Positions 3,246 to 33,480 are shown, counted from the first letter of the stretch. The stretch: DNA of 64,000 nt from an uncultured Bifidobacterium sp. (GCA_964529175.1 CAZGVO010000012.1:12757-76756), one strand, 5' to 3'. Notes: a model not told the origin generated them from the letters alone. Program-made: numbers and translations.

Positions 3246-4664
3246 TTAGTTACACTTGTTTAAATATTTTTGAATTTGATCGTAGTCATCTACGCTGGTT
3301 TCTGTACGCATGTAAATGGTTAAATGCATTTTTCCATCCCTACATTTTTTATTGTTTACCAGTAATTTGCCCAATTCTCGGTGTAAATAAGGGTAAGTGT
3401 TATTGTATTTTAAACCATCGTTTAGCAAAACTTCTGCTAGTTCGGTTTTGTTTAAATTGGCCTGATAAGTGCCCATAACATAATATGGCAAATACATAGC
3501 TGGCCAAAGTTGATTAACTTGTTTGGCTAGGTCGGCAGTGGTTTTACTAACTCCGTAATCAAAAAATGATTTATAAAATTGAGCAAATACATACACATCG
3601 TTGCTCGAAAATTGAGCAGAACTTATGCCTTGCATACCACCTAAAACAGTTTGCAATAATTTTTCAACTTGAGGAATTTTAGGGGTATAAATTAACGCAT
3701 TAATACAAGCCTCAATAGCAGCATGGTTGTTAAGTGCCGATGCTTGAGTTTTTGCTATTCCATACCAAACCCTGGCATCTTCAGGATATTTATTTGATAA
3801 AAAAGTAAGTAAATCCAATGCTTTAGTGTCGTCATTATTTATCATTAAATAATTGGCGTTTAAAAGCATAATATCTAAATCAGCACTGTTAAGTTTTTTT
3901 GCAATTTTTATGGCAGCCTCAGCTTCCTCATTATTTTCCAATTGTAACAAAAACTGTGCTTTGTAATAATAGGCCAAATAAAGTTTTGGCGATGTTTCTA
4001 TTATTTCATCGCAGTAGTTTATTCCATTTTGATATTCAGCTTTTTTTCTTGCTCTAGCAGGGTCAAGGCCAAATATTGGAAAGGTTTTAGCCAATGCTTT
4101 TACCTTATCAAGCTTATTATAAACCTGAATTGGAATATCCGATAAATCTGCCTTTGGATTATTGGAGGCTTGTAAAAGGCTATTGCCAATATTGAACGAT
4201 GCTGTAATTTTTTTAGCTAATTCGCTTTGTAGGTTAAAAAGGTTATTTAAACTTCCATTTACTGAATTACTGCTAATTACTTGTCCTGTAGTTACACTTA
4301 CTGTTCTTGTACTTATTTTTACAGTTTCGTTAAGTGCTGTAATTGAGCCAAATACAAAATACTGGACACCCAAAAGTCTTCCAGTTTCTATGGCTGTTTT
4401 TTCGTCAACCAAACCTGAGTTTTGAAGTTTTACCTCCTCAATAATTTTGTTTAAATATTCACGTTCAACTACTCTAACAGTGTGGTCGTTAGTAAGTATT
4501 TCAAAAATAGCTTCAGTACAACTAGCCCCTAAAAAGTCTTTTTCGCTTCCACCGCCAAGTGTTTTAAAATTGGCAATTGCCACAGTTATTGGTGCTGATG
4601 CAAAAGCATTTACAGAAAAAAGTAGTAGGCTTGAAATATAAATTTTTAGTAAAGTGTATTTCAT
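3246..4664 (-). CDS. CsgG-like secretion-channel domain protein fused to TPR repeats
   Basis: N-terminus ITVAIANFKTLGG..LGASCTEAIFEIL..VVEREYLNKIIEEVKLQNSGLV..LGVQYFVFGSI matches the CsgG/HfaB-family pattern. C-terminal half is helical repeat-rich (TPR-like). First gene of a four-gene minus-strand operon. Confidence 0.5.
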   Translation of the reverse strand: MKYTLLKIYISSLLLFSVNAFASAPITVAIANFKTLGGGSEKDFLGASCTEAIFEILTNDHTVRVVEREYLNKIIEEVKLQNSGLVDEKTAIETGRLLGVQYFVFGSITALNETVKISTRTVSVTTGQVISSNSVNGSLNNLFNLQSELAKKITASFNIGNSLLQASNNPKADLSDIPIQVYNKLDKVKALAKTFPIFGLDPARARKKAEYQNGINYCDEIIETSPKLYLAYYYKAQFLLQLENNEEAEAAIKIAKKLNSADLDIMLLNANYLMINNDDTKALDLLTFLSNKYPEDARVWYGIAKTQASALNNHAAIEACINALIYTPKIPQVEKLLQTVLGGMQGISSAQFSSNDVYVFAQFYKSFFDYGVSKTTADLAKQVNQLWPAMYLPYYVMGTYQANLNKTELAEVLLNDGLKYNNTYPYLHRELGKLLVNNKKCRDGKMHLTIYMRTETSVDDYDQIQKYLNKCN

Positions 4665-4806
4665 GGGTAAATATTTTAATATTTACCGCAAGTAAGCACA
4701 ATTTAAAAGTATATCCTATACCTATAAGTAGGTATTTTGCATTAATTTTTTGTTAAATATCTGATTGGTAGGTTATTATGTTTAGCTTGTTTTTCTAGTA
4801 GCTTGG

Positions 4807-5583
4807 TTACCAAGTTAGTTTCTCTTTATTTAAAAATGCGTTGATACCTTTTTTGCAATCGTTGGTTTGGCGTGCATAAGCATTCATTTCTGCAGCGTAG
4901 TTTAGTGCATCAATTAAGCTTCTATTTTGTACTTCGTCAATCATTTGTTTTGTTAATGCCAAACTTTGTCCTGACGCGCCTTTGCAAAGTTTTTGTGCAA
5001 AATTGAACACATGTTCTTCTATTTCTTCAAAGTTTACCACTTCGTTTATCAACTGAAAGTTTTTTGCTTGTTCTGCAGTTAAAATTTCGGCTGTCAGTAA
5101 AATGCGTTTAGCTGTTTGTTCGCCTACTTTGCGCAATAAAAATACCATTACTATAGCGGGCACAAAACCAATTTTTACTTCGGTGTAAGCAAATTTACTA
5201 TCAGTTGTAGCAAAACAAAAATCGCAAATGGTAGCTAAACCGCAGCCGCCAGCCAAAGCAGCACCTTCTACTTGCGCTATCACTACTTTTCTCGATTGGT
5301 AAATCATGGCAAAAAGTTCCATTAAGTTTTTACTATCGGCTAAGTTTTCATCGTAAGTATTGTTTTGCATGGTTTGCAAACTACTTAAGTCAGCTCCGCT
5401 ACAAAAAGCCTCTCCATTTCCTTTAAATACTATAACCTTGCAGTTTTCATCGCTTTCAGCTTGCACAAATACACGTTTTATTTGTTGCACAAAATCAAAA
5501 CTTAATGCATTGCGTTTTTCTGGTCGGTTTAAGGTTATATAACCTACACGTTCTTTTACATGGTATAATACTAAATCGTTCAT
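4807..5583 (-). CDS. enoyl-CoA hydratase/isomerase (crotonase family)
   Basis: Crotonase fold motifs NRPEKRNAL, FKGNGEAFCSGADL, AQVEGAALAGGCGLA. Confidence 0.8.
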   Translation of the reverse strand: MNDLVLYHVKERVGYITLNRPEKRNALSFDFVQQIKRVFVQAESDENCKVIVFKGNGEAFCSGADLSSLQTMQNNTYDENLADSKNLMELFAMIYQSRKVVIAQVEGAALAGGCGLATICDFCFATTDSKFAYTEVKIGFVPAIVMVFLLRKVGEQTAKRILLTAEILTAEQAKNFQLINEVVNFEEIEEHVFNFAQKLCKGASGQSLALTKQMIDEVQNRSLIDALNYAAEMNAYARQTNDCKKGINAFLNKEKLTW

Positions 5584-5598
5584 GGTTTTTGGATTGGT

Positions 5599-7650
5599 TT
5601 ATGGTTCAATATTAATGGTAATTGCACCATTTTCAAGCACATTATTAGCTAAAATATTTTTTGTTTTTAAAAATTTTGCAATGCTTTGAGATTGAAGATT
5701 ATTTAATTTAGAGCTTATAACAATAGGTGTGTTACTTGCTAGTAAATTGGTGTCAATATAAATTTTTTCAGTTAAAATATTGGTATAATTGGGCAGTATT
5801 TTGTTACCAATATTTATATTGAGGTGATTAATTTTTACTTGTAAATTTTGGTTAAAATTAATGGTATCAACCTTGGTTATGCCGCTTGCCCAAATATGTT
5901 GTTGTAAATGAAAGTGAAATTTATCGGGATTATGCAGCAAGCTACTATCAGCTATAATGGTGCTTTGGGTGCCGTTTACTATTTGCATAGCCAAAGTTTT
6001 ATTGATATTATAAATGGTAACAAACTTTTGGTTTTCTATTTTAAAATCTTCGTAAGCATTTACTACAAAAACCATTATAAAAAAGAATAAAGCATTTTTA
6101 GCTAAATACTGTTTGCGTGTAATAAAATAATTGCATGTGTATGCTACCGCAATAAAAATGAGAATGGTTTCTATTTCGGTAATTTGAATACCTGTGATAT
6201 ACGAAAATGGCAACTTTTCGAGCCAAAGCACAATGATATTGGTAAAATAAATGAGCCATTTTACTACAAAACCAAAACATAAAGCCAAGTAGCTAAAAAT
6301 TGGAATCAGTTGCGCTAAACCTGCAGCAAATATCATGGCTATGGCTACAAAAATAATTACAGTAGTTAAAGGAATAATGAGCAAATTACTGGCTAAAAAG
6401 TAAACCGGAAACTGATGGAAATACAATAAACCCAGAGGAAAAGTAGCCAATTGTGCAGCTATAGAAACCGAAATAATATTCCAAATTTCATTGCTTATCC
6501 AATATTTAAAAGTAAACCATTGTTTAAAATATTTTTGAATACTTACTATGCCAAAAACGGCTAAAAAACTCAATTGAAAACCAACACTTGCCAGCATATT
6601 GCTATCAAACAAAAGCAACGTGAAAGCCGATGCCGCCAAAGTATTATAAATATTTGGCTTATTTTTTACCATGTTGCCAAGGGCAACAAAACTAAACATA
6701 ACACTGGCACGTAAAATAGAAGGCGAAAGTCCGCAAAGCAGGGAGTAAGCCCAAATAATTAATAGGGAGATAATGGCTTTTATAATGCGTTGGTATTTCT
6801 TTTTATCAAAATATTTGAGCACCAAATTAATGAGCCAAAATATTAAACCAACATGCATTCCACTAACAGCCAAAACGTGTAATGTTCCTGTGTTGGAATA
6901 AGCCCTCACTAATTCAGGGTCAATATCATCATCGTAACCATAAAGTAGTGCTTTAGATATGGCAATTTCTGAACTGCTTTTTACATAAGTAAGCAGCGTT
7001 TGGTTAAAAAAAGCTTGTGCTTGGTAAGCTATTTTCCATAATATATTTTCACCATTTTCATCAATAACAATAAAGTTTTTGGCGGTTAAATAAGCTTGCC
7101 TGTATATTTGATTAAAAGCCAAATAGCGCTTATAGTTAAACTCATAGGGGTTTTGTGGTCCTTTAATTTCCTGGCTTGTATTTTTTATCAATAGCCTACT
7201 GCCATAGCTAAGTTTAACAAGCAAGCTAGAATCTTTTTCAAAATATAGCATTACATAACCATCAACTTGGGTGGTTGAGTTAGGATTTACAGCTTGCAAA
7301 ACCTCAGCTTTACATTTAATAGAGTTTTTTCTAAGTAGGGGAGGTTCGGTTAAAGTTACTACCAAATATTGGCTTTGGTAATTGGTAAAATGCTGTTGGT
7401 AGTTTAAATGGTTATGGCTGTTATGCAAAACCACACCAGCAAAACCAAAAACTAGATTTGAAAAAATGCCAAACAGTTTATTGAAAGATTTAAAAAATTT
7501 CCAAAGTATAAAAATACATAAACAGCTTGTTAATAAAACAATTATGCCAGCATTAAGCGGCATAGGAAAAAACATGTTTATACCAACACCAATAGCCATT
7601 GGAATAACAATGCGTACAAACGGTATTTGATGCCAATAACCTGCTAACAC
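5599..7650 (-). CDS. comEC: ComEC/Rec2 family competence membrane protein
   Basis: Polytopic membrane protein with the competence-domain signature TGTLHVLAVSGMHVGLI; DUF4131-like N-terminus. Confidence 0.8.
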   Translation of the reverse strand: MLAGYWHQIPFVRIVIPMAIGVGINMFFPMPLNAGIIVLLTSCLCIFILWKFFKSFNKLFGIFSNLVFGFAGVVLHNSHNHLNYQQHFTNYQSQYLVVTLTEPPLLRKNSIKCKAEVLQAVNPNSTTQVDGYVMLYFEKDSSLLVKLSYGSRLLIKNTSQEIKGPQNPYEFNYKRYLAFNQIYRQAYLTAKNFIVIDENGENILWKIAYQAQAFFNQTLLTYVKSSSEIAISKALLYGYDDDIDPELVRAYSNTGTLHVLAVSGMHVGLIFWLINLVLKYFDKKKYQRIIKAIISLLIIWAYSLLCGLSPSILRASVMFSFVALGNMVKNKPNIYNTLAASAFTLLLFDSNMLASVGFQLSFLAVFGIVSIQKYFKQWFTFKYWISNEIWNIISVSIAAQLATFPLGLLYFHQFPVYFLASNLLIIPLTTVIIFVAIAMIFAAGLAQLIPIFSYLALCFGFVVKWLIYFTNIIVLWLEKLPFSYITGIQITEIETILIFIAVAYTCNYFITRKQYLAKNALFFFIMVFVVNAYEDFKIENQKFVTIYNINKTLAMQIVNGTQSTIIADSSLLHNPDKFHFHLQQHIWASGITKVDTINFNQNLQVKINHLNINIGNKILPNYTNILTEKIYIDTNLLASNTPIVISSKLNNLQSQSIAKFLKTKNILANNVLENGAITINIEP

Positions 7651-7745
7651 AAAAACAAATTAAATAAAAATGAATAAATATAACATACAAATAACTAAAA
7701 AAGTGTATAAAACTGTTTATTAATCAAATCAATATAGCTGTTTGA

Positions 7746-8237
7746 ATGTTATATAATTGCATAAACAAAGAAACAAATATGGCTTACAATTACTTATTAC
7801 TTATTCACAGTTGGTTGCGTTGGGCTTTTTTAATAGCCGCTCTATATGCAATAGTTCGCTCATTAAATGGAAAATTGGGAAACAAACCATTTACCAAAGA
7901 TGATATTACTGCTGCAAAAATTTTAATAGCACTTAGTCATACTATGTTGCTTTTGGGCTTAATACTTTGGTTTGTGAGTCCTAATGTGCAAAATGCGTTG
8001 GCTCAAGGTGCTGGTGTGTTTATGAAAGATAAATATATGCGATTAATAGTATTAGAACATCCTTTAACCAATATTATAGCTGTGGCTTTAATTCAAATTG
8101 GTAGGATAAAAAGCAAGAAAGCTTACGAAGATGCAGTTAAACACAACCGTAGTTTAATTTATTATGGTTTGGGTTTATTGTTAATTTTATCGCGTATTCC
8201 GTGGGGCACATCGCCACTGTTTAGAGGAATGGAATAA
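7746..8237 (+). CDS. hypothetical small membrane protein
   Basis: Three to four hydrophobic helices; likely start at MAYNYLL (~7779). Followed by a clean terminator. Confidence 0.4.
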   Translation: MLYNCINKETNMAYNYLLLIHSWLRWAFLIAALYAIVRSLNGKLGNKPFTKDDITAAKILIALSHTMLLLGLILWFVSPNVQNALAQGAGVFMKDKYMRLIVLEHPLTNIIAVALIQIGRIKSKKAYEDAVKHNRSLIYYGLGLLLILSRIPWGTSPLFRGME

Positions 8238-8255
8238 TTTTTACAAATACAAAAA

Positions 8256-8289
8256 AGGGAGCATTTAAAATAAATGCTCCCTTTTTTTG
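8256..8289 (+). terminator. rho-independent terminator
   Basis: agggagcattt-aaaataa-aatgctccct followed by T7. Confidence 0.7.
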
Positions 8290-8469: not shown

Positions 8470-8946
8470 CTACTCAGGTAAATCATTGGGGTATTTTCCA
8501 AGTTGTAACCATTGACATATATGGATAGGAGCAAAAACGCCATCTATCCAAAATTTTTTATACTCATCAGTTAATTCACCTATTTTAATCCGATCAGGTG
8601 AACCACTTTGGAATATTTTCCAATTGTATGATTTTTTCAATTTGTGCGAATCTGGCGTACTCTTAAACATAGGTAGTTCAAAATTTTTTTCTAGAGGACA
8701 GTTCCCTATTTTACTCCAATATCCAAGTTCTACTCCTTGAGTTAACCTAGTATAGGCATAAAAAAGTATTTCTTCATTCATTATTTCGCATAGGTTGTTA
8801 TTTAAGTTTTTGGTTTTAAATGCTCTTATTAAATGCCCACCTAAATAACAGCTATCTTGAAAAATATATTGGATGTAACTTTTTGTGTTATCTTCTAAAT
8901 TAACTTCAAAAATATCTCCACTTTTAACCCTAATCTTCTTTAACAT
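8470..8946 (-). CDS. hypothetical protein (158 aa), no recognisable domain
   Basis: Complete ORF bounded by hairpins (8393-8414 downstream; 9130-9164 upstream). Cysteine- and Trp-containing soluble protein, no signal peptide. Confidence 0.4.
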   Translation of the reverse strand: MLKKIRVKSGDIFEVNLEDNTKSYIQYIFQDSCYLGGHLIRAFKTKNLNNNLCEIMNEEILFYAYTRLTQGVELGYWSKIGNCPLEKNFELPMFKSTPDSHKLKKSYNWKIFQSGSPDRIKIGELTDEYKKFWIDGVFAPIHICQWLQLGKYPNDLPE

Positions 8947-24654: not shown

Positions 24655-24733
24655 TACCAGTAATATATTTTATGCATTCAAATATATTGTTTGTAAGGGA
24701 TTTTAAAAGTGGGAAATTTTTCTGTTTCAATTA

Positions 24734-25432
24734 CTATTCCTTAATAGGTTTACTTGTTTTTTTAGCAGGTTTTGGGTTAATAAATTGTGCATCGTAAAAA
24801 CTTTTTACTCTAGGTTTATCATTAACATGTAGCTTAATTAAATCTAATAGAACCAAGTACATGCCAGTAGCCAGTTCTATTCTTATGGTATTTCCATCAA
24901 ACGAGCCTTCTTTTACTTCTCCTTTTTTAGTTAATTGAGCGTTTCTAACGCTTATATATTGGTTTAATATTTCAATTGATTTGTCTTTAAATTCTTGTTT
25001 TAAATCTATCTCCAATTGGCAAGCATCATTAAGCCGTTGCATAATGGTTTCAGCTTCGGTTTTTTTCATTTTATTGTATTCCTCTTTTCCGTTAGGAAAC
25101 AAAGCGTTAAAAGCCACCGGTTTTTTTCGTTTCCAGCTATATACTTCATCGTATAAATTGGTTACAAAGCCAATAAATTCATTTAATACACTGTTTACCG
25201 TTATGGTTTTTCCTTTTTTAGTGGTTACGGTAGTTTCTTGGTTGCTTAGCCATTTTCTGTATTTATTATACAATGGCTCCACTAGGGCAATCATGGCTGT
25301 ATATTCGCCTGTATTGTTTTCAGTATTTTGATATGCTTTTAAATAATTAAGATGACCTTGTGCTAATAAGCCAAAATGCTCATCACTTAGTCTTGAATTT
25401 TCAAACGGATTTTCTAAAATATTGTTTATCAT
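24734..25432 (-). CDS. hypothetical protein, left edge of the accessory island
   Basis: 232 aa, no recognisable motif; Lys-rich C-terminus (PKPAKKTSKPIKE). Confidence 0.4.
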   Translation of the reverse strand: MINNILENPFENSRLSDEHFGLLAQGHLNYLKAYQNTENNTGEYTAMIALVEPLYNKYRKWLSNQETTVTTKKGKTITVNSVLNEFIGFVTNLYDEVYSWKRKKPVAFNALFPNGKEEYNKMKKTEAETIMQRLNDACQLEIDLKQEFKDKSIEILNQYISVRNAQLTKKGEVKEGSFDGNTIRIELATGMYLVLLDLIKLHVNDKPRVKSFYDAQFINPKPAKKTSKPIKE

Positions 25433-25629
25433 ATTATATCCTATATTTTAAATGGTTATTTAGTGGCTCAAAATTACAAGTGCTAAAATTTGCATTGGTT
25501 TTTAACCAATTAGGTTTACTTAAAAACCATATTTTTTTATTTATAATAGCTACTTTTTAATGCCATAAACCAAATAACTTTAATTATCATTATTTTATAA
25601 TAGCTTGTTTAATAAAACGATAACATTAA

Positions 25630-25895
25630 TATTTTGGTATGATGATGTAATAAATAAACCAAAATCAAAAATACCATTACATGATGATGTAATGACAAAA
25701 CCGAAGCCGAAAATACCGTTACATGATTATGTAATGGCAAAACCGAAGCCGAAAATACTGTTACATGATGATGTAATGACAAAACCGAAGCCGAAAATAC
25801 CATTACATGATAATGTAATGACTAAACCGAAGCCGAAAATATTGTTACATGATGATGTAATGACAAAACCGAAATTGAAAAGGGAGACTGTCCAA
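25630..25895. repeat. 42-bp tandem direct repeat array (~6.3 units), each unit with a 16-bp near-palindrome TTACAT-N4-ATGTAA
   Basis: Units about 90% identical, e.g. gatgatgtaatgacaaaaccgaagccgaaaataccgttacat; palindrome arms conserved while the 4-nt centre varies (gatg/gatt/gata). Confidence 0.8.
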
Positions 25896-26110
25896 AAAAG
25901 TGGGTAAAGGGTACTGTTTAACTAAGTGTATAAAGGAATAATTAGTTTAAAATGAATATGTTAAATTGGCAGGAGCCTTGATTGCAACTTTTCTTACCAT
26001 AAGACTAACTTTTTAAATTACAGTAAATAGAACTATAAGAATTTATTTTAGCGCGACACCCTTTGGCGTTTCTACCAAGTAATTTTGCAGTAACTAGAAA
26101 CAAAAATACT

Positions 26111-26527
26111 ATGGAAGAACAGTTTTATTACTCAGATATTACTAATAATGAACTCCTATATTTACTGAAACAACCAAATTTTGCTGCTTCGTTAGCATAT
26201 TTAGTTGATTTTAAAAATCATTCTGATTTGACTGTTACTCCACACGATTATTCAATTGAAATATCGAATAAGGATATATGCATTGCTGTTATTTTATTAG
26301 CGGGATTTGAAACAAACGAATATTTAACTTTAAAAAATAATGTAAATTTTAATTTGATAACTTTAAGTAAAATAATACCTGGAATGTGCGAATTTGAAAA
26401 TATGCCACTAAAATACATAGATAATTTAGCCTGGTTTTTTTCTGCAATAAATAGGTCGAAAAATGAAGAAGTGAAGAAAATTAGCCGTATTAAGAATTTA
26501 AATATGGATTCAGTATCAATCTCATAA
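26111..26527 (+). CDS. hypothetical protein, tandem paralog A
   Basis: Start moved to MEEQFYY. About 60% identical to the next gene over its full length (…FAASLAYLVDFKNHSDLTVTP.DYSIEISN…). Confidence 0.5.
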   Translation: MEEQFYYSDITNNELLYLLKQPNFAASLAYLVDFKNHSDLTVTPHDYSIEISNKDICIAVILLAGFETNEYLTLKNNVNFNLITLSKIIPGMCEFENMPLKYIDNLAWFFSAINRSKNEEVKKISRIKNLNMDSVSIS

Positions 26528-26548
26528 TAATAACTAAACAATACAAAC

Positions 26549-26947
26549 ATGGAAGACCAATTTTATTACTCAAACATTTTTAATAATTCATTATTACACT
26601 TGCTTAGGCAGCCAGATTTTGCTGCTTCGTTAGCATATTTAGTCGATTTTAAAAATCATTCAGATTTGACTGTTACTCCATATGATTATTCAATAGAAAT
26701 ATCGAATAATGAAATAACTATAGCCATTGTTCTTTTTTCTGGGTTTGAATTAAATGAGTATTTGGCACTAAAGAATAAAAGGAACTTTCATATCATTTGT
26801 ATTAATCCAATATTTTTACAAATGTGTGAATTTGAGGAGATGCAATTAAAATATATTGATAAGTTATCCTGGTTTTTTTCTGTAATAAACAGATCGGAAA
26901 ACGAATTGGTGAAAGAAATTAATTGGATAAAAAATTTAACAGTTTAG
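26549..26947 (+). CDS. hypothetical protein, tandem paralog B
   Basis: MEDQFYYSNIFNN…; paralog of 26111-26527. Confidence 0.5.
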   Translation: MEDQFYYSNIFNNSLLHLLRQPDFAASLAYLVDFKNHSDLTVTPYDYSIEISNNEITIAIVLFSGFELNEYLALKNKRNFHIICINPIFLQMCEFEEMQLKYIDKLSWFFSVINRSENELVKEINWIKNLTV

Positions 26948-27050
26948 TAAAAAAATAATGTTTGGTAATACCATAACTAATTCCGTTAATTACAATTAAA
27001 ATAGGGTAGCAGAAAACTATTTAAGTAAGCAAAATATAAAAATATAAAAT

Positions 27051-27350
27051 ATGATTTCAGACGTAAGAGAAAAAGGAAGCCTCATTGAAGTTTATGATGC
27101 AAATAGTAAAAGAATTTCTTACATGAGTGTAGGAAGTAAAGAGCTTGTTGGTATTGCAAGCAATTTCTTTGTTGTTATCAATGGTTTACTAGTTGAAGTG
27201 TATGATGAAAAATGTAAACGTGTTTCATATATGAGTAAAGGTAGCAAAATTGTAAAAGGTGCAGCGGGCAATACTTTTACAGTAAAAAATGGTAGCCTTA
27301 TTGAAACCTATGATGAGAATTGTAAAAGAATAAGTTACAAAAACGCTTAA
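27051..27350 (+). CDS. small protein made of three ~32-aa repeats
   Basis: LIEVYDANSKRISYMSVGSK… / LVEVYDEKCKRVSYMSKGSK… / LIETYDENCKRISYKNA; 3-bp gap to the next gene. Confidence 0.45.
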   Translation: MISDVREKGSLIEVYDANSKRISYMSVGSKELVGIASNFFVVINGLLVEVYDEKCKRVSYMSKGSKIVKGAAGNTFTVKNGSLIETYDENCKRISYKNA

Positions 27351-27352
27351 AT

Positions 27353-28618
27353 ATGGAAATAGCAGAAGAAACAATCAAAAATTTACTTAGTCAGGTTTCT
27401 ACCATTGTAAGTAAATACGATGAAATAGCAGTAGCAAATGGAGAAAACTTCAATGTATTTCAAATACTTAACTTATCAAGTGCTGAAGTTAGATTACATT
27501 CAAAACTGTTAGCTGAATTACTAAATCCTAAAGGAAGCCATAATTTAGGAGATGTATTTCTTAAGTTGTTTATTCAAAGATTAAACAATAGTCCATTTAT
27601 AGGTGAGCCTCTGAAATTATCAGAGCTTGAAAATTCACTGATAGAAGTTGAAAAATATACTGGTAATATTGATAAGCAAAATGATACTGGAGGTAATATT
27701 GATATTTTTATTCATTTGCCAGGTCAAAGCGATTTAGTGATTGAAAATAAAATTTTTGCAGGCGACCAAGAAAGTCAATTAAGGCGTTATCATAATTTCA
27801 ATAAAACAAAGAAACCAGTACTTGTTTATTTGACATTGGATGGCAAGGAAGCAGATGAATTCACTACAAAAAATTCACAGTATAATGAAAATAAAATTGA
27901 ACCGGTCTTATTTTCTTATCAAAGTGATGTAAAAGAATGGTTAGAAGATTGTAGAAAAGAAGCGACCAATTTACCTGTGGTTAGAGAAACAATAACGCAA
28001 TACATTAATTTAATTAAAAACCTAACAGGACAAAGTATGAATAATAATATGAAAAATGACGTTGTAAAAGCTATATCTGAAAGTGGTGCTAAAGTTAAAG
28101 GAGCATTTGAAATTGGGACCGCCTTATCTGATGTTAAAAAACTGCTATTGAAAAAATTTGCAGAAGAAGTTATACTAAAAGTAAAGAAAGCGAAACCAAG
28201 TGTTAGTGCTGATTTATCAAATAATTTCGGTGAAAAATGGAACGGTATTTCATTTAGTTTACAGACAATTAGCAGTACTAATGTTTATTTTTCATTTTTA
28301 AAAGATTATAAGGATGTTTATCTCGAAATAGGTAATAAACAGAATTACTGGCAAGATAAAATAAAGAAGGTCGAATTAAAAAACATAGAATATTATAGGA
28401 ATGCTTTAGTTAATATTTCAAAAGGTTGGGGGATAATTGAAAATACTGTAAACGCTTGGAATGGTGATTGGGTATGCAGATATAGGAAAATGGATGTTTG
28501 GATAAATGATGGTAGTCTTTGGTACGATATTGCCGAAAACAAATTTGATGATAAGGCTGAAAAAGTAGCGCAAGATATTTTAGTACTTCTTGAGTCTACT
28601 GAGAAGAAACAATTCTAA
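27353..28618 (+). CDS. PD-(D/E)XK nuclease-superfamily protein (PDDEXK_4-like), paralog 1
   Basis: N-terminal GENFNVFQILNLSSAEVRLHSKLLAELLNPKGSHNLGDVFLKLF; catalytic-type motif GNIDIFIH…DLVIENKIFAGDQESQLRRYH; conserved LPVVRETITQYINLIKN. Confidence 0.6.
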   Translation: MEIAEETIKNLLSQVSTIVSKYDEIAVANGENFNVFQILNLSSAEVRLHSKLLAELLNPKGSHNLGDVFLKLFIQRLNNSPFIGEPLKLSELENSLIEVEKYTGNIDKQNDTGGNIDIFIHLPGQSDLVIENKIFAGDQESQLRRYHNFNKTKKPVLVYLTLDGKEADEFTTKNSQYNENKIEPVLFSYQSDVKEWLEDCRKEATNLPVVRETITQYINLIKNLTGQSMNNNMKNDVVKAISESGAKVKGAFEIGTALSDVKKLLLKKFAEEVILKVKKAKPSVSADLSNNFGEKWNGISFSLQTISSTNVYFSFLKDYKDVYLEIGNKQNYWQDKIKKVELKNIEYYRNALVNISKGWGIIENTVNAWNGDWVCRYRKMDVWINDGSLWYDIAENKFDDKAEKVAQDILVLLESTEKKQF

Positions 28619-28635
28619 TTATTGATTGAATAAAT

Positions 28636-29808
28636 ATGGAGTTAACACAATCAATACAGTACCTTCTTAGTTCTGTTTCCGAAATAAATAAAAAGTATGA
28701 AGAAATAGCAAGTATTACAGGAGAAAACTTTAACATTTTTAAAGTATTAAACTTACAGTCAGATGAGGTGCGTTTGCATTCAAGACTTTTAGGAGAATTA
28801 TTAAACCCCCATGGTTCTCATGGTAAAAATGAATTATTTCTGGAATTGTTTTTATCAACTTTAAATTTGAATAGTGAATATACTCAAGAGGAGATAAAAA
28901 ATGCAACTGTAATTGTAGAAGAGAACATAGGTAATATCTCAGATGATTACTCAAAAGGAGGTAGAATTGATTTAGTTATTAAATTTCTGGGGAATAAAGA
29001 AATAGTTATTGAAAATAAAATAGGTGCTGGTGACCAATTTAATCAATTAGGTCGATATCATGAGCAATATCACAATGCTCATATTTTATATTTAACACCT
29101 TTAGAAAAGAAACCTTCTAAAGAAAGCCTTGGAGAAAAATTAAAACTTGAGCAAGTAAAATGCATTACTTATAGAAATGAAATAAAGAAATGGATAGAAC
29201 TATGCCATGAAAAAACATCCAATTTTCCGATGTTAAGAGAAACTATCACACAATATATTTTTTTAATTAAACATATAACAAATCAAACAATGAATGAAGA
29301 AATGGAAAAGGAAATAGTAAAAAAAATAATTAGTAGCCAAGAAATGATGAATGCAGCTGAAATTATTTATAATAATTTTGGTGGTGCTAAAATTGAAATA
29401 ATGAAAAGTTTTGGTGAAAAGATTCGTGATAAATTTCCTAATCTTATTTGTGATCCATTTCCAGGCGATGATAATGATGTTGAATTTCATTTTTATAATC
29501 GCAAATGGAGTAATGTAAAGATTCGTATTCGATTAATAACAAATGAATATGCAAGAATAAGTATTCGTTATGAAAATGATTTTAAAGAGTTAGAAAGCTT
29601 TGCAGCATTATGTGAAAAGTTAAATAGCAAGTTTAAAAATACTAATTATAAAGAAGACCCTAACAATTTATTTGTTTATAATATTGCTAAATGGGACTAT
29701 AATATAATTTGGAATTCTGTTAATTCTGATAATGACGAATTTATTAAAAAAATATTTGAGAATATTGAGCTATATCAAAATGCTCTTGCAAACATTAACG
29801 GTTTATAA
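28636..29808 (+). CDS. PD-(D/E)XK nuclease-superfamily protein (PDDEXK_4-like), paralog 2
   Basis: Same motif set: GENFNIFKVLNLQSDEVRLHSRLLGELLNPHGSHG, GRIDLVIKF…EIVIENKIGAGDQFNQLGRYHE, FPMLRETITQYIFLIKH. About 35-40% identical to paralog 1. Confidence 0.6.
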   Translation: MELTQSIQYLLSSVSEINKKYEEIASITGENFNIFKVLNLQSDEVRLHSRLLGELLNPHGSHGKNELFLELFLSTLNLNSEYTQEEIKNATVIVEENIGNISDDYSKGGRIDLVIKFLGNKEIVIENKIGAGDQFNQLGRYHEQYHNAHILYLTPLEKKPSKESLGEKLKLEQVKCITYRNEIKKWIELCHEKTSNFPMLRETITQYIFLIKHITNQTMNEEMEKEIVKKIISSQEMMNAAEIIYNNFGGAKIEIMKSFGEKIRDKFPNLICDPFPGDDNDVEFHFYNRKWSNVKIRIRLITNEYARISIRYENDFKELESFAALCEKLNSKFKNTNYKEDPNNLFVYNIAKWDYNIIWNSVNSDNDEFIKKIFENIELYQNALANINGL

Positions 29809-29816
29809 TTTATTAA

Positions 29817-30734
29817 ATGTCTAAACGCGGCTACATATCACGCTATTTGCTCATACTTAAAAAGTTGAAAGTAAAACCTTTTGCTACTTATGAGGAGTTG
29901 CAGACTTATATTGATCATCAGTTTGAGTATTTGCAAATGCAAGATGATGGATTGCAAATTGGTTTTTCTAAACGAACGCTTCAACGTGACATCAAAGAAA
30001 TAAGTAATATTTTCGGAATTGATATAGAATATTCAAAGCAAGAAAAAGGCTATTTCATTAGCCAAAGTGAAAATGAAAACATGAATTTTCAGCGTATGAT
30101 GGAGGCTTTTGAAATATTTAATTCTTTAAATATGGCTCACGATTTAAAGCCGTTTATTCATTTAGAAAAGCGTAAACCACAAGGAACTGAAAATTTGTAT
30201 GGTTTGCTACATGCCATTAAAAACAAGTTTCAAATAAAGTTTACTTATCAAAAATTTTGGGAGGAAGAACCAAGTAAACGCCTTGCAGAACCTTATGCTT
30301 TAAAAGAGTTTAAAAGTCGCTGGTATATTATGGCTAAGGATAAAAAAGATAATCATATCAAAAGTTTTGCGCTTGACCGCTTAACGAATCTTGAAATTAC
30401 TACCCTACATTTTCAATACAATAGTAATTACAATATAGAACAAAACTACCGCTATTGTTTTGGCATTATCAGCCCAAATGAGGAGGAACCTCAAGATATT
30501 ATTTTATCGTTTGAACCATTTCAAGGAAAATATATCAAAACATTGCCACTGCACGAAACACAAACAGTTTTGGTAGATAATGACGATGAGTTGAAAATTA
30601 AGCTAAAACTTTATCTCACTCATGATTTATTAATGGAATTACTTTCGTTTGGTGATAATGTAAAAGTGATTGAACCCAAAACGTTAGCAGATGAAATTAA
30701 GCAAGCACATGAAATGGCCTTTAAGCAATATTGA
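29817..30734 (+). CDS. wHTH-WYL-WCX transcriptional regulator (BrxR/CapW-like)
   Basis: N-terminal HTH (ISRYLLILKKL…TYEEL). WYL domain FKSRWYIMAKDKKDNHIKSFALDRLTNLEIT; C-terminal extension consistent with WCX. 8-bp gap from the nuclease gene. Confidence 0.75.
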   Translation: MSKRGYISRYLLILKKLKVKPFATYEELQTYIDHQFEYLQMQDDGLQIGFSKRTLQRDIKEISNIFGIDIEYSKQEKGYFISQSENENMNFQRMMEAFEIFNSLNMAHDLKPFIHLEKRKPQGTENLYGLLHAIKNKFQIKFTYQKFWEEEPSKRLAEPYALKEFKSRWYIMAKDKKDNHIKSFALDRLTNLEITTLHFQYNSNYNIEQNYRYCFGIISPNEEEPQDIILSFEPFQGKYIKTLPLHETQTVLVDNDDELKIKLKLYLTHDLLMELLSFGDNVKVIEPKTLADEIKQAHEMAFKQY

Positions 30735-31037
30735 TTATAAAAAAATAATTTTATGGAAAACACTAAAGAGAATTTAACTGAGCAGCTTAAAGAAATAACC
30801 GAAAAGAAAAAGAAAGCGGTTGCTGCCCAATTATACGAATTAGCATCTATGTATAAGAGATAAAGAAAAGGATTTGATGTTAAAGTTGGAAGAATTGGAA
30901 AATATTAAAAGTAACTAATATAAACTCCAATGAAAAATAAGGCCTAATTACCTGCTTGTTTTTAAAAGCTTTGTTTGCATTAGTGATTGTACTAAATACT
31001 TTTGTTGTAAATTAAGTTTAACTTTCAAAGATAAAAA

Positions 31038-31325
31038 GTGCAAAAATTTGTAATAACCATATTTATAATAATTCAACTATTGATTTATTTTTTATTGCTG
31101 CCTTATGCACAAAAATCGGCTGATGGTCATATCAATAATGGTTTTGCTTTTGGTATTGTTTTTTATTTTGTAGCTGCGTGGCTGTTACTGGTTGGTTTAA
31201 TTGATGGAATTAAACATAAAAAGTATTTGATGATTATTTATATAATTGTGATTGCATTTACATTTATTTTGTGGGGAAAAGTATTTACTAATTTGGAATG
31301 TAATAGTTGCTTAAACAGTGGCTAA
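31038..31325 (+). CDS. hypothetical small membrane protein
   Basis: Three hydrophobic helices, Cys-rich C-terminus (CNSCLNSG). Confidence 0.35.
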   Translation: MQKFVITIFIIIQLLIYFLLLPYAQKSADGHINNGFAFGIVFYFVAAWLLLVGLIDGIKHKKYLMIIYIIVIAFTFILWGKVFTNLECNSCLNSG

Positions 31326-31373
31326 AAAACAAAATAAATTATTACTTTTAAAATCTTAGCATCTAAAAAACCA

Positions 31374-31883
31374 TTGACAAACTCATTAATATTAATAGCA
31401 GTTTTGTTTGTAATGAATGGAACTTTTGTAAGTTGCAACTTTGAATATAAAGTAAAACAAAACATGGAACAAAAACCCGCCACTACCCAAACTAACGATA
31501 CCACACCTAAAGTAACTGGTGTGGGTGGTATCTTCTTTTTCTCTGAAAACCCAAAGGAAATAAGAGCATGGTATAAAAAAAACTTAGGCATTGATGCCAA
31601 CGATTATGGTGCTAGCTTTGAATCGAGGAGCTTAGATAAGCCTGATGAAATAAACACTTTGCAATGGAGCCCATTTAAAAAAGGAAGCGAATATTTTGCC
31701 CCTTCAAAAAAGGAGTTTATGATTAATTATTGTGTGCAAAACATAGAAGGATTGGTAGCCCAATTAAAAGCAAATGGTGTAAACGTTTTAGATTCAATTG
31801 AAACTTTTGATTACGGAAAGTTTGTTCATATTATGGATAATGAAGGCAATAAAATAGAACTTTGGGAACCTTCTTCTAATTAA
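31374..31883 (+). CDS. VOC/glyoxalase-family protein with N-terminal signal/lipoprotein leader
   Basis: GGIFFFSENPKEIRAWYKKNLGI … FVHIMDNEGNKIELWE, the paired-βαβββ glyoxalase pattern. Confidence 0.55.
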   Translation: MTNSLILIAVLFVMNGTFVSCNFEYKVKQNMEQKPATTQTNDTTPKVTGVGGIFFFSENPKEIRAWYKKNLGIDANDYGASFESRSLDKPDEINTLQWSPFKKGSEYFAPSKKEFMINYCVQNIEGLVAQLKANGVNVLDSIETFDYGKFVHIMDNEGNKIELWEPSSN

Positions 31884-31897
31884 GAATTGAACTAAAA

Positions 31898-33073
31898 ATG
31901 ACCATTCCATTAATTATTACCATTTGTGCCTTACTTTTATTAGCTTATTGCTTTGATATTACCTCATCTAAGACCAAAATTCCTTCTGTAATATTGTTGT
32001 TGGTTTTAGGTTGGGGTGTACATAAAGCCACTGATTATTTTGAAATAAAAGTACCAGATTTAACGCCAGTTTTACCCGTTTTAGGCACAGTAGGTCTTAT
32101 TTTAATTGTTTTGGAAGGTTCGCTTGAGTTAGAGCTAAATAAATCAAAATTTGCGTTTGTTGGTAAAACTTCATTAATAGCTTTATTGCCTATGTTGTTG
32201 TTAAGTTTTGGCTTAGCCTTTGCTTTTCAATATTTGGGTGATACTACTTTTAAAATTGGCTTGGCCAATGCCATACCATTTGCCATTATTAGTAGCGCCA
32301 TAGCCATTCCAAGTGCTCAAAATTTAATGAACCATGATAAAGCTTTTATAACCTACGAAAGCAGTCTTTCAGATATTTTTGGGGTTATATTGTTTAATTT
32401 TATAACCTTAAACGATAATATTGGTTCTGATTCATTTGGGCATTTTGTTTTAGAACTAATAATTATACTCATTATTACATTTGTATGCACCATTGGGTTA
32501 GCTTTTCTCCTAAGTAAAATAAAGCACCATGTAAAGTTTGCACCCATTATATTAATGATAGTTTTGATATATGCCATTTCAAAAGTTTATCACTTACCAG
32601 CTTTAATTTTTATATTATTATTTGGTTTATTTTTAGGCAATCTTGATGAAATAAAGCACCATAAATTTATAAAATTACTTAAGCCAGATTTTTTAAAAAG
32701 CGAAGTTCATAAATTTAAAGAACTTACTACTGAAATTGCCTTTTTAGTGCGCGCACTTTTTTTCCTTGTTTTTGGTTATTTAATAAAGTTAGATGAATTG
32801 CTAAATACCTCTACAATAGTTTGGGCAATTGGTATTACAATAAGTATTTTTTTGATACGTTATTTGGCTTTAAAATTATTCAAGAAAACAATCAAGCCAC
32901 TATTGTTTATTGCGCCAAGGGGTTTGATAACCATTTTACTTTTTTTAACAATTCCGGTATCTCAGATCATACCTATAGCAAATAACTCATTGGTTATTCA
33001 GGTTATTATACTTTCAGCGTTGGTTATGATGGTTGGTTTAATTAGTACAAAAACCGAAGAAAGCGATGTTTAG
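31898..33073 (+). CDS. cation:proton antiporter (CPA1-like Na+/H+ exchanger)
   Basis: 11-12 TM helices, no soluble domain. Confidence 0.55.
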   Translation: MTIPLIITICALLLLAYCFDITSSKTKIPSVILLLVLGWGVHKATDYFEIKVPDLTPVLPVLGTVGLILIVLEGSLELELNKSKFAFVGKTSLIALLPMLLLSFGLAFAFQYLGDTTFKIGLANAIPFAIISSAIAIPSAQNLMNHDKAFITYESSLSDIFGVILFNFITLNDNIGSDSFGHFVLELIIILIITFVCTIGLAFLLSKIKHHVKFAPIILMIVLIYAISKVYHLPALIFILLFGLFLGNLDEIKHHKFIKLLKPDFLKSEVHKFKELTTEIAFLVRALFFLVFGYLIKLDELLNTSTIVWAIGITISIFLIRYLALKLFKKTIKPLLFIAPRGLITILLFLTIPVSQIIPIANNSLVIQVIILSALVMMVGLISTKTEESDV

Positions 33074-33433
33074 CCTTAATTAAGCTATTTTTTTATTTAT
33101 CATTTACACCAACTCCATAACCAAATAAGGCGGCTACTGCTGCCAAATGAATAATTAAAACTGCTTTTTGCCAAGTAGGTCTATCGTTCCATTTTTGTTC
33201 AGTATCAAATGGGTCAAAAGCTAAGCCAATTTCCATAGATGCAGCAGCTTGCATTTAATCTTTGGTGAAAAAAGTTTGGTATAATGCCATGATTATAAAA
33301 CCAATGTAAAGAAACTTGTTAAAAGGTGTTTTCATATTTCTAAAATTTGTACTCAATTTTAAAGTATTAGTAATTAGCTTTTTATAAAAACTACTCCAAA
33401 GGTTAAATTTTAGTTTTAAACGGAATTTATTGG

Positions 33434-33480
33434 CAAAAAAAATCCCTTTCAATATTACTTGAAAGGGATTTTTTATTTTT
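33434..33480. terminator. bidirectional rho-independent terminator
   Basis: A-run, aatccctttcaa-tattact-ttgaaagggatt, T-run. Terminates glyA (minus) and + strand readthrough. Confidence 0.7.

Follow-up and report, generated by a model that had tools for sequence, protein, structure and literature searches.

PDC-S26 nucleases are guilt-by-embedding candidates for anti-phage defence; PDC candidates are defined by their embedding in restriction-modification (R-M), BREX or DISARM systems, and PDC systems are explicitly described as untested (bioRxiv 10.1101/2024.01.29.577857). In the literature searched, no anti-phage test of PDC-S26 was found, nor any biochemical nuclease data for a member of Pfam family PF14281. 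WYL regulators of the BrxR/CapW type combine wHTH, WYL and WCX domains and occur beside varied, mosaic sets of defence genes, type IV restriction enzymes among them (PMC9122601), and ssDNA is described as a WYL ligand in the literature on CapW, BrxR and DriD (PMC13622015, PMC9186387). PafBC and DriD govern core repair genes genome-wide. Type IV cassettes of the GmrSD/BrxU/HEC-05/06 group carry an effector made of DUF262 and HNH domains.

The locus described here lies in a 64-kb stretch (64,000 nucleotides, referred to below as the window) of an uncultured Bacteroidia genome. As expected of PDC-S26, its nucleases match the family model over their full length and have homologs in or beside type I R-M operons; PDC-S26 is, however, defined as a lone gene, whereas here two diverged copies (nucA and nucB) are accompanied by a small repeat protein (MINI), two UP proteins, a WYL regulator and a dedicated putative operator. 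The regulator shares with BrxR/CapW its domain architecture, a short inverted-repeat putative operator at the promoter that drives the controlled genes, a mosaic cargo and, plausibly, an ssDNA ligand. It differs in that BrxR homologues are 97% proteobacterial, in that the BrxR/CapW gene lies upstream of the controlled system while here it is usually last in the operon, and in that the putative operator has a fixed spacing and covers the -33 region of a promoter of Bacteroidota type. PafBC and DriD are its closest sequence relatives of solved structure, and, as at PafBC promoters, the operator would stand in for an upstream promoter element; unlike them, it is tied to strain-variable restriction-type cassettes. 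In sister cassettes that have the same promoter and MINI and a WYL protein 84% identical to the present one, GmrSD-like enzymes fill the exact slot held here by nucA and nucB. Both arrangements lack a methyltransferase, but the effectors of the present locus are PD-(D/E)XK proteins with an unassigned C-terminal domain.

Layout of the operon and its island

Four tightly packed ORFs on the + strand occupy positions 27051-30734 and encode MINI, nucA, nucB and an HTH-WYL-WCX regulator, with intergenic gaps of 2, 17 and 8 nt. The earlier note had described the same ORFs at the same coordinates, with gaps of 3, 17 and 8 bp, of which only the first needs correction. It had also taken the four genes as the complete unit; all four do belong, but the start lies about 1 kb upstream, where an operator-promoter, up1 and up2 precede MINI. 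The locus is most likely a single WYL-controlled operon, running from about 26054 to 30734, with the following features:

24718-33435, no strand: strain-variable island of 8.7 kb containing the operon, delimited by the synteny break against L178 and L180
26054-26068, + strand: putative WYL operator, imperfect inverted repeat CGACA-N5-TGGCG
26080-26087, + strand: Bacteroidota-type -7 promoter box TAATTTTG (consensus TAnnTTTG), 11 nt past the operator
26111-26527, + strand: up1, 138 aa, first gene of the operon
26549-26947, + strand: up2, 132 aa, tandem paralog of up1
26999-27023, + strand: 3'-end remnant (about 25 nt) of the AAA ATPase gene that stands ahead of MINI in sister cassettes, by alignment with L108, L097, L096 and L093
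27051-27350, + strand: MINI, 99 aa, three 36-aa repeats
27353-28618, + strand: nucA, 421 aa, predicted PD-(D/E)XK nuclease of the PDC-S26 family
28636-29808, + strand: nucB, 390 aa, predicted PD-(D/E)XK nuclease of the PDC-S26 family, in another subclade than nucA
29817-30734, + strand: WYL regulator, 305 aa, HTH-WYL-WCX, last long gene of the operon
30753-30863, + strand: short ORF (36 aa) 18 nt past the WYL gene, weak UVR motif, operon membership uncertain

The up1 ATG aligns with the first-gene start of the sister cassettes and agrees with the gene call in L001. No terminator was found 3' of the WYL gene, and the 3' end of the operon is therefore undefined; the 36-aa ORF is also called as a gene in L001, and its Pfam UVR match (E 8e-4) is under the cutoff. 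The up1 product has no match in Pfam, PADLOC or PHROG; its family is small, with 57 representatives, and some members are fused to GmrSD_N-like or FtsZ_C domains. The up2 protein is 70% identical to that of up1 in amino acids (tandem repeat period 438 nt, 1.9 copies), and an up2 homolog adjoins a WYL-nuclease pair of genes in L042. Homology by blastn to L108, L097, L096 and L093 begins at 26994-27000; judging from the alignment, the AAA gene is replaced here by the two UP copies, with a 25-nt stump of its 3' end left behind.

MINI consists of three 108-nt repeats of 36 aa each, in agreement with the triplication read from the sequence earlier. Its predicted fold comprises three four-stranded blades (pLDDT 96), and MINI is thus a predicted three-blade beta-propeller fragment. 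The predicted three-sheet blade-repeat fold is shared with Helicobacter pylori IceA2 (HrgB). Homology to IceA2 was not detected at the sequence level: identity is 13%, and a PDB profile search gave no IceA2 match.

Synteny with L178 and L180 (about 80% DNA identity) ends at 24717 and resumes at 33436, and in these relatives glyA and the M28 peptidase gene are just 1.7 kb apart at the place of the island. Within the island GC drops to 0.26-0.30, and same-strain contigs break at about 24.8 kb. The accessory island postulated between housekeeping genes is confirmed, with an extent of 24718-33435 in place of 24.7-30.9 kb; far from being conserved in the core genome of relatives, it is absent from those about 80% identical. 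A type II R-M system was rejected as a description of the locus, as a methyltransferase ORF or homolog is absent from both island and window.

The paired nucleases

The two nucleases show 36% identity in an alignment of 390 aa (BLASTP E 1e-63), within the 35-40% estimated earlier. Both match Pfam PF14281 (PDDEXK_4) over profile positions 1-183, nucA with E 5e-37 (128.1 bits) and nucB with E 8e-32 (111.1 bits), against a curated cutoff of 22.3, and both match the PADLOC PDC-S26 model PDLC04980 over its full length (nucA E 3.6e-98, residues 6-417; nucB E 4.6e-91, residues 3-379). The motifs listed in the earlier note are confirmed and fall on invariant columns of a 97-sequence family alignment, which both copies retain throughout (N34, F36, E45, H49, H63, E100, D117, E131, N132, K133, Q142, Y146 and Y217). 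They include the predicted catalytic triad D117/E131/K133 (IENK), invariant across the 97 sequences and intact in nucA and nucB, and the predicted structures contain the restriction-endonuclease-like alpha-beta-beta-beta-alpha-beta core. The PDDEXK_4-like assignment with D...ExK motifs made in the earlier note is thereby borne out, and nucA and nucB may be regarded as candidate anti-phage DNA-cutting enzymes. Any modification dependence of PDC-S26 is conjecture.

The two copies differ chiefly in a hypervariable C-terminal domain, their N-domains being 44% identical, against 16% for the C-domains. They fall in different subclades, and their closest relatives are different proteins, at 67% identity for nucA and 62% for nucB (from P0122 onward for the latter). 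These values agree with the old duplication proposed previously; the heteromer offered as its alternative lacks comparative support, because the nuclease is single-copy elsewhere and never paired in WYL-centred loci or the other contexts examined. Among some 180 related loci the tandem pair occurs in this one only, so that comparison carries no information on how the two nucleases relate; 79 of the 80 species-representative loci have a single copy, the exception being L034, where just an incomplete second copy lies at a distance of about 3 kb. The pair as such is not a conserved system, and the wording "undescribed" was too strong for a family already catalogued as the PADLOC candidate PDC-S26.

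The genomic context of the family bears on defence in both directions. In homologous nuclease loci, hsdM/hsdS/hsdR genes are found in about 9 of 80, and also in L085, together with DEDDh and AAA genes. Phage genomes hardly ever carry the family (2 of 50,697 records), and it has no meaningful PHROG match. In the present window no R-M, BREX or DISARM system was seen adjoining the nucleases, and its 64 kb yielded neither a further recognisable defence system nor a methyltransferase or mobility gene, which counts against a defence reading.

The WYL regulator and its putative operator

The regulator matches Pfam WYL (PF13280, E 2.5e-14) and WCX (PF25583, E 4.9e-9) and, weakly, HTH_11 (E 0.025), so that the wHTH-WYL regulator recognised earlier at the 3' end of the cargo is upheld. 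When compared by phmmer with all PDB chains, its closest matches were PafBC (E 3e-7) and DriD (about 1e-5), and no BrxR or CapW chain was found at E up to 0.01; membership of the BrxR/CapW family was consequently rejected. The earlier description of a BrxR/CapW-like repressor is retained as to the WYL class but not as to that likeness, and repression is an assumption, since PafBC and DriD, to which its sequence is nearer, are activators. Of the DriD ssDNA contacts, mapped by us from the phmmer PDB alignment, four of six are kept (Y144, R155, Y170 and K182), and S153 and A185 differ.

A WYL orthologue is present in 26 of the 80 species-representative nuclease loci, with 24 of 27 copies on the same strand, and the linkage extends to the nearest relatives of nucA, to those of nucB and to an isolate plasmid; linkage of the WYL gene to the nuclease in homologous loci is real. 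No description of this linkage, which concerns about a third of species in the PDC-S26 family, was found in the literature searched. WYL orthologues that are 66-84% identical cap many different cassettes, with DNA homology limited to the ORF. The gene is last in most sister cassettes and first in a minority (e.g. L156, L159 and L161).

The palindrome at 26054-26068 is the putative operator of this regulator, as suggested by sequence comparison. It is the sole zero-mismatch match in the window, where about 0.01 matches are expected at up to one mismatch (from shuffles of a near-identical pattern), and lies 43 nt upstream of the up1 ATG. In related loci 107 instances of the motif were found, with a constant spacing of 11 nt to the -7 box (consensus from PMC7366714 and PMC2483708), whose position is conserved in the sister cassettes; the family unit reads CGNCA-N5-TGNCG, 11 nt, TAnnTTTG. 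The motif stands upstream of the cassettes' first genes, or of the WYL gene where that comes first. Across the 80 nuclease-centred loci, it is associated with WYL presence (24/3 vs 6/47, Fisher p 7.7e-12). The operator covers roughly -39 to -24, the expected place of the -33 element.

Cassette family and proposed function

Sequence comparison places the locus in a widespread family of accessory, predicted DNA-targeting cassettes of Bacteroidota, of which it is a mosaic member. Only the promoter, MINI and WYL show DNA homology to the sister cassettes, and the junctions follow ORF boundaries precisely; the slot between MINI and WYL holds one or two GmrSD genes, PDC-S26, UDG-like or other genes. 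The family frame consists of the operator-promoter, a first gene that is usually an AAA+ ATPase, one or two effectors and a WYL gene that is usually last; MINI and a DEDDh exonuclease are often also present. The AAA ATPase and the DEDDh exonuclease are absent from this locus and, as these are the commonest partners, this copy could be impaired.

The best overall explanation, which we consider probable, is that of a WYL-controlled operon, a mosaic Bacteroidota cassette of inducible anti-phage nucleases. The same anatomy could be produced by a PafBC/DriD-type regulator that is an ssDNA-dependent activator, replacing the -33 element and recruiting RNA polymerase; the operon would then be silent until triggered, and the position of the WYL gene as the last one would lead to positive-feedback amplification. 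We regard this as possible but tentative. The PDB matches and the invariant spacing of the operator in about 100 instances point towards it, as do PafBC-dependent promoters without a -35 element (PMC9186387) and the requirement, in this phylum, of a -33 TTTG motif for full promoter activity (PMC2483708). Every defence-associated WYL regulator tested to date is, however, a repressor (PMC9122601, PMC13622015), an activator whose gene comes last in the operon that it controls would depend on some basal expression, and the TTTG inside the operator might be a displaced -33 element, so that the spacing would reflect the promoter only. A further alternative, namely an SOS-independent DNA-damage or repair operon under a DriD- or PafBC-like WYL regulator and not immunity at all, appears very improbable: the resemblance of the regulator, and the fact that all cargo families process DNA (DEDDh exonuclease, UDG-like, PD-(D/E)XK and AAA), would fit, but the island is missing from close relatives, different strains carry different, interchanged cargo, GmrSD type IV restriction enzymes among it, members of the nuclease family lie embedded in R-M loci, and the single operator in 64 kb stands before this operon.

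Other alternatives concern the cargo. The co-orientation of nucA and nucB across a 17-nt gap, with both predicted active sites intact, would suit an obligate heteromer in which each cuts one strand or contributes one function, on the model of R.BspD6I, a heterodimeric restriction enzyme, and tandem GmrSD_N paralog pairs recur in sister cassettes; nevertheless the nuclease pair is seen in this strain only, and each subclade is found alone beside WYL, so that each is evidently sufficient by itself, which makes the heteromer unlikely. Less likely again is an addiction cassette resembling a toxin-antitoxin system that stabilises the island, in which MINI and/or UP neutralise the nucleases and the WYL protein autoregulates. 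As in type II toxin-antitoxin pairs, a small gene lies directly 5' (2 nt) of a nuclease gene; homologs of MINI are in every case followed by a nuclease gene (Mrr_cat, a PDDEXK_4 fragment or DEDDh), and PD-(D/E)XK nucleases without a methyltransferase partner are potentially toxic. However, most PDC-S26 genes have no MINI partner (0 of 80 nuclease-centred loci), and in sister cassettes MINI adjoins the AAA and DEDDh genes and not the main effector. A toxin-antitoxin role would, moreover, be compatible with abortive-infection defence.

The most likely function of the locus is therefore that of an inducible, nucleic-acid-sensing anti-phage nuclease cassette. In such a cassette, a WYL dimer on the palindromic operator over the -33 region would set transcription of all genes of the operon, including the one that encodes it, and a nucleic-acid ligand arising from phage or plasmid attack, most likely ssDNA, would switch it to higher expression. 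The nucleases would then cut invader DNA, each with its own D117/E131/K133 site and hypervariable C-terminal domain, most likely as independent enzymes with different target preferences. MINI would probably oligomerise into a closed propeller, partnering or restraining the adjacent nuclease; position and fold are what suggest the roles proposed for MINI and the UP proteins.

A broader scenario, which we hold to be rather doubtful, is that of a Bacteroidota-wide plug-and-play immunity platform with swapped effectors, in which the WYL protein is an ssDNA-dependent activator and the twin nucleases are a dual-specificity payload. If true, the fixed frame would consist of the operator-promoter, a MINI-type propeller fragment and a 3' WYL sensor, and GmrSD enzymes, PDC-S26 nucleases, UDG-like glycosylases and DEDDh exonucleases would be exchanged within it at ORF-precise junctions. 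The WYL protein would substitute for the -33 element in the manner of PafBC and DriD, and restriction of the invader would feed back positively on the cassette.

Operon structure and the two nucleases

The earlier note had placed four plus-strand open reading frames at 27051-30734 and read them as a candidate defence module of tandem nucleases and a WYL regulator. All four were found at those positions and are closely packed, with intergenic gaps of 2, 17 and 8 nt, the first being 2 nt rather than the 3 nt claimed.

Features of the operon and its 3' neighbour
27051-27350, plus strand: MINI, 99-aa ORF
27353-28618, plus strand: nucA, 421-aa nuclease ORF
28636-29808, plus strand: nucB, 390-aa nuclease ORF
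29817-30734, plus strand: WYL, 305-aa regulator ORF
30753-30863: 36-aa ORF with a weak UvrB/UvrC (UVR) motif, 18 nt 3' of WYL

MINI, earlier described as a triplicated mini-protein, indeed consists of three 108-nt repeats. The assignment of nucA and nucB to the PD-(D/E)XK superfamily was upheld, both scoring far above the cutoff for Pfam PF14281 (PDDEXK_4); their identity of 36% over 390 residues lies within the 35-40% first estimated. The last protein, taken for an HTH-WYL regulator, matched WYL and WCX, its HTH match being weak. The module is thus real and coherent, and most of that first reading is correct. With the two small genes upstream, the transcription unit would be up1-up2-MINI-nucA-nucB-WYL.

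Both nucleases also matched PADLOC-DB PDC-S26 models along their whole length (nucA E 3.6e-98, nucB E 4.6e-91). Thirteen invariant positions were checked in a 97-sequence alignment of the family (N34, F36, E45, H49, H63, E100, D117, E131, N132, K133, Q142, Y146 and Y217), and nucA and nucB retain 13/13. Across the family, the nuclease domain averages 49% pairwise identity and the C-terminal alpha/beta domain 19%; between nucA and nucB the values are 44% and 16%. This variability of the C-terminal domain is consistent with a role in recognition or as a sensor. PDC systems are 145 untested candidates, whose genes came to notice by lying inside loci of BREX, DISARM and type I R-M systems (bioRxiv 10.1101/2024.01.29.577857). 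An experimental test of PDC-S26 was not found in the literature searched, where PDC-S26 is named in two papers and PF14281 in one, as "function unknown". A PDB sequence search with nucA gave no match and Foldseek against the PDB nothing significant, so that no solved homolog can guide the mechanism; an NCBIfam search gave nothing useful. The family is practically absent from phage genomes and found on a few plasmids; searches of PHROGs and of the phage genome collection returned next to nothing, and a phage origin was rejected.

Two explanations for the nuclease pair were considered and set aside. A recent tandem duplication was rejected because nucA and nucB each have closer relatives elsewhere: the closest to nucA are 67%, 61% and 55% identical, and the closest to nucB, which is not among the nucA relatives, is 62% identical across the N-terminal three quarters. 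The earlier view that these are not recent copies is therefore sustained. A conserved two-nuclease system was rejected as well, and its suggestion of a heteromer has no comparative support: the nuclease is single-copy in 79 of 80 species-representative genome loci, the sole exception (L034) having a partial second copy some 3 kb away, it is likewise single in every metagenome context examined and on one isolate plasmid, and a second two-nuclease example was not found. nucA and nucB belong to different subclades that are joined at this locus, and the tandem pair is a local peculiarity.

The WYL regulator and its putative operator

WYL is by far the most frequent neighbour of the nuclease in the 80 loci. 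Orthologues (phmmer E from 1e-131 to 1e-30) occur no further than 8 kb from it in 26/80, bearing out the linkage in homologous loci; 24 of the 27 WYL copies are on the same strand as the nuclease and 16 are within 1 kb. Three further kinds of neighbour recur: an AAA+ ATPase in 11 loci, a 160-aa DEDDh exonuclease in 8, and genes of type I R-M systems. Gene order is AAA-nuclease-WYL in the closest relatives of nucA (L082, L084, L085 and L002), and either nuclease-WYL or AAA-DEDDh-nuclease...WYL in relatives of nucB; a Chryseobacterium balustinum plasmid is annotated with WYL followed by a PD-(D/E)XK nuclease. In L082, the closest of all to nucA, a 77-aa UVR-like ORF directly precedes the nuclease.

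A conserved upstream block carries an imperfect inverted repeat, (A/G)CGNCA-N5-TGNCG, which in some loci is a perfect palindrome (e.g., CGACA-N5-TGTCG or CGTCA-N5-TGACG). Exactly 11 nt 3' of it is the -7 box for the primary sigma factor of Bacteroidota, TAnnTTTG (PMC7366714, PMC2483708). With this box at about -12 to -5, the repeat spans about -39 to -24, the place of the -33 element. The 64-kb window holds one exact copy of the combined motif, at 26054-26087, with the up1 ATG (26111) 23 nt downstream; the chance expectation, computed for a near-identical pattern, is about 0.01 matches at no more than one mismatch. A second operator-like match at 57297-57330 has two mismatches and a poor -7 box and is within chance (0.37 expected). 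Scans for sigma-70 promoters and terminators gave shuffle-level counts, as expected for the phylum, and no terminator after WYL.

Co-occurrence of WYL and the operator-promoter motif in 80 nuclease-centred loci
WYL present: motif present in 24, motif absent in 3
WYL absent: motif present in 6, motif absent in 47

The motif tracks the presence of WYL (Fisher p = 7.7e-12), and we infer from this sequence association that the inverted repeat is a putative WYL operator. Across all fetched loci the motif occurs 107 times (97 unique), standing before AAA genes in 50 instances, WYL in 10 (WYL-first loci), nucleases in 3, and also before other first genes. Four to five such units precede successive cassettes in single loci (L011, L052, L007 and L034), which suggests arrays of independently WYL-controlled modules.

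In its domain architecture WYL fits BrxR, CapW, DriD and PafBC equally well. The best solved relatives by sequence are PafBC (E 3e-7) and DriD (about 1e-5), both activators responding to ssDNA (PMC9186387), and among PDB sequences no BrxR or CapW chain matched. Of the ssDNA contacts of DriD, mapped through the alignment, WYL keeps four, its equivalents being Y144, R155, Y170 and K182, and differs at two, S153 and A185. An activator is a serious alternative, if a somewhat unlikely one by our estimate. BrxR and CapW are repressors released by ssDNA, and because every defence-associated WYL regulator tested to date is a repressor (PMC9122601, PMC13622015), repression is favoured here as somewhat more likely. 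Defence-adjacent WYL regulators are known mainly from Proteobacteria, most defence-associated WYL clusters being uncharacterised (PMC13622015).

Conserved frame, exchangeable cargo and the island

A WYL-centred metagenome scan yielded 80 loci with WYL proteins 66-84% identical to that of the window, a conservation far exceeding that of the nucleases. Their operons follow a common grammar: AAA ATPase (of two kinds), 99-aa MINI, DEDDh exonuclease, effector(s), then WYL. The effector slot holds one or two GmrSD-like type IV restriction enzymes, a PDC-S26 nuclease, a UDG-superfamily protein or unknown proteins; AAA was counted in 34 loci, GmrSD in 25, DEDDh in 22, MINI in 14 and PDC-S26 in 8. The window DNA matches these loci in three blocks only.

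Blocks of DNA homology to the WYL-centred loci
26037-26116: promoter and 5' leader
26994-27350: MINI and about 50 nt upstream, 83-86% identity
about 29808-30732: WYL ORF, about 80% identity

The homology breaks off at ORF boundaries, namely the stop codon of MINI and both the start and the stop codon of WYL. At 26999-27023 a remnant survives of the 3' terminus of the AAA gene, which precedes MINI in other loci, and no AAA or GmrSD gene was found anywhere in the window. Since homology is limited to the three blocks, with this remnant left and both genes missing, the operon is a mosaic in which the frame is retained, up1 and up2 take the place of AAA, and two PDC-S26 nucleases occupy the effector slot.

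In the effector slot of sister cassettes, i.e., loci sharing this frame, pairs of GmrSD_N paralogs that have diverged, of about 565 and 731 aa, recur in tandem (L108 at 4119-8001; also L109, L116, L118, L125 and L168), paralleling the twin nucleases. UDG-superfamily proteins lie directly 5' of WYL in L154 (3181-4317), L137 (7252-7950) and L138 (849-1586), only the first exceeding the Pfam cutoff (E 1e-6). The metagenomic defence island L088 combines a PDDEXK_4 gene, DUF2779, AAA-MINI, a NotI R-M pair, a TIR protein and HipA.

In homologs of MINI the number of repeats ranges from two to four, and the gene that follows immediately encodes a nuclease, which is DEDDh in sister cassettes, Mrr_cat in L086 and a PDDEXK_4 fragment in L090-L092. 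MINI may thus be an oligomerising partner or a restraint of the adjacent nuclease. In the HpyAI R-M locus, the place of the restriction gene iceA1 is taken by iceA2, a gene polymorphic in its repeats (PMC2588503). Hints of LytB_SH3 (Pfam) and PbeB (PADLOC) for MINI were both below cutoff and were discarded. The two UP-family genes, up1 and up2, form a 438-nt tandem duplication (26111-26939; 75% DNA and 70% protein identity). Their family has just 57 cluster representatives among 1.84 billion proteins, is sometimes fused to GmrSD_N-like or FtsZ_C domains, and has one homolog next to WYL-nuclease in L042. Derivation of UP from a leftover AAA N-terminal domain was rejected, as BLASTP and hhalign show no relation.

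The window comes from the genome of an uncultured member of the Bacteroidia. The module was said to lie in an island of unknowns, and the comparison agrees: relatives at about 80% DNA identity have glyA, 1.7 kb and then an M28 peptidase, whereas the window has 8.7 kb between the two (24718-33435), where GC falls to 0.26-0.30. Five independent assemblies with an identical M28 peptidase (L173-L177) end about 150 nt past its start, at window position ~24800, suggesting that strains in the sampled community differ at the edge of the island. Rfam and tRNA scans and a homolog search found no tRNA, integrase, att-tRNA, Rfam family or methyltransferase in the window; a classical type II R-M system was rejected because the methyltransferase is absent. 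Both edges of the island (24684-24704 and 33452-33472) carry a 21-nt direct repeat, imperfect at 18/21, and in the relative L178 a 56-nt element 3' of glyA occurs twice, on either side of a 180-aa ORF (8205-8260 and 8833-8888); these may mark the recombination site of a hot spot.

Just 5' of the operator, the ORF at 25605-25907 contains 5.6 copies of a 42-nt unit (88% match, 25639-25873), which translate as PKPKIPLHDDVMTK repeats; no counterpart was seen in any fetched locus. Also within the island, a 232-aa minus-strand ORF (24734-25432) matched no family, and its cluster counts only two members among 15 billion proteins. The right-hand stretch of the island (31038-33073) contains a membrane ORF of 95 aa, a 169-aa protein of glyoxalase/VOC-like type and an exchanger-like membrane protein of 391 aa; this stretch too is missing from the relatives L178 and L180 and has no DNA homology to sister cassettes.

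Significance of the locus

The locus is best described as a WYL-controlled, strain-variable cassette with two PDC-S26-type nucleases. Its known parts are a catalogued candidate effector and a defence-type WYL regulator; as to function, we infer defence itself, the ligand, the polarity of the regulator, what the nucleases target and what MINI and UP do. The broader result is a WYL clade of Bacteroidota whose operator-promoter can be recognised and whose frame accepts swapped DNA-targeting effectors. No description of it was found in the literature searched, and this broader result is what makes the locus of interest; the earlier term "undescribed" goes too far for the nucleases, already catalogued as PDC-S26.

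From the locus and its relatives, this Bacteroidota clade gains a precisely delimited candidate operator joined to a phylum-specific promoter, a regulon with a defined grammar, and natural swap experiments in which one frame carries different effectors. Several points are now testable: defence by PDC-S26 nucleases and what their hypervariable C-terminal domain reads, an activator mode for a defence WYL protein, and the role of a small IceA2-like-fold repeat protein beside nucleases. The operator-promoter could double as an inducible expression part in Bacteroidota genetics.
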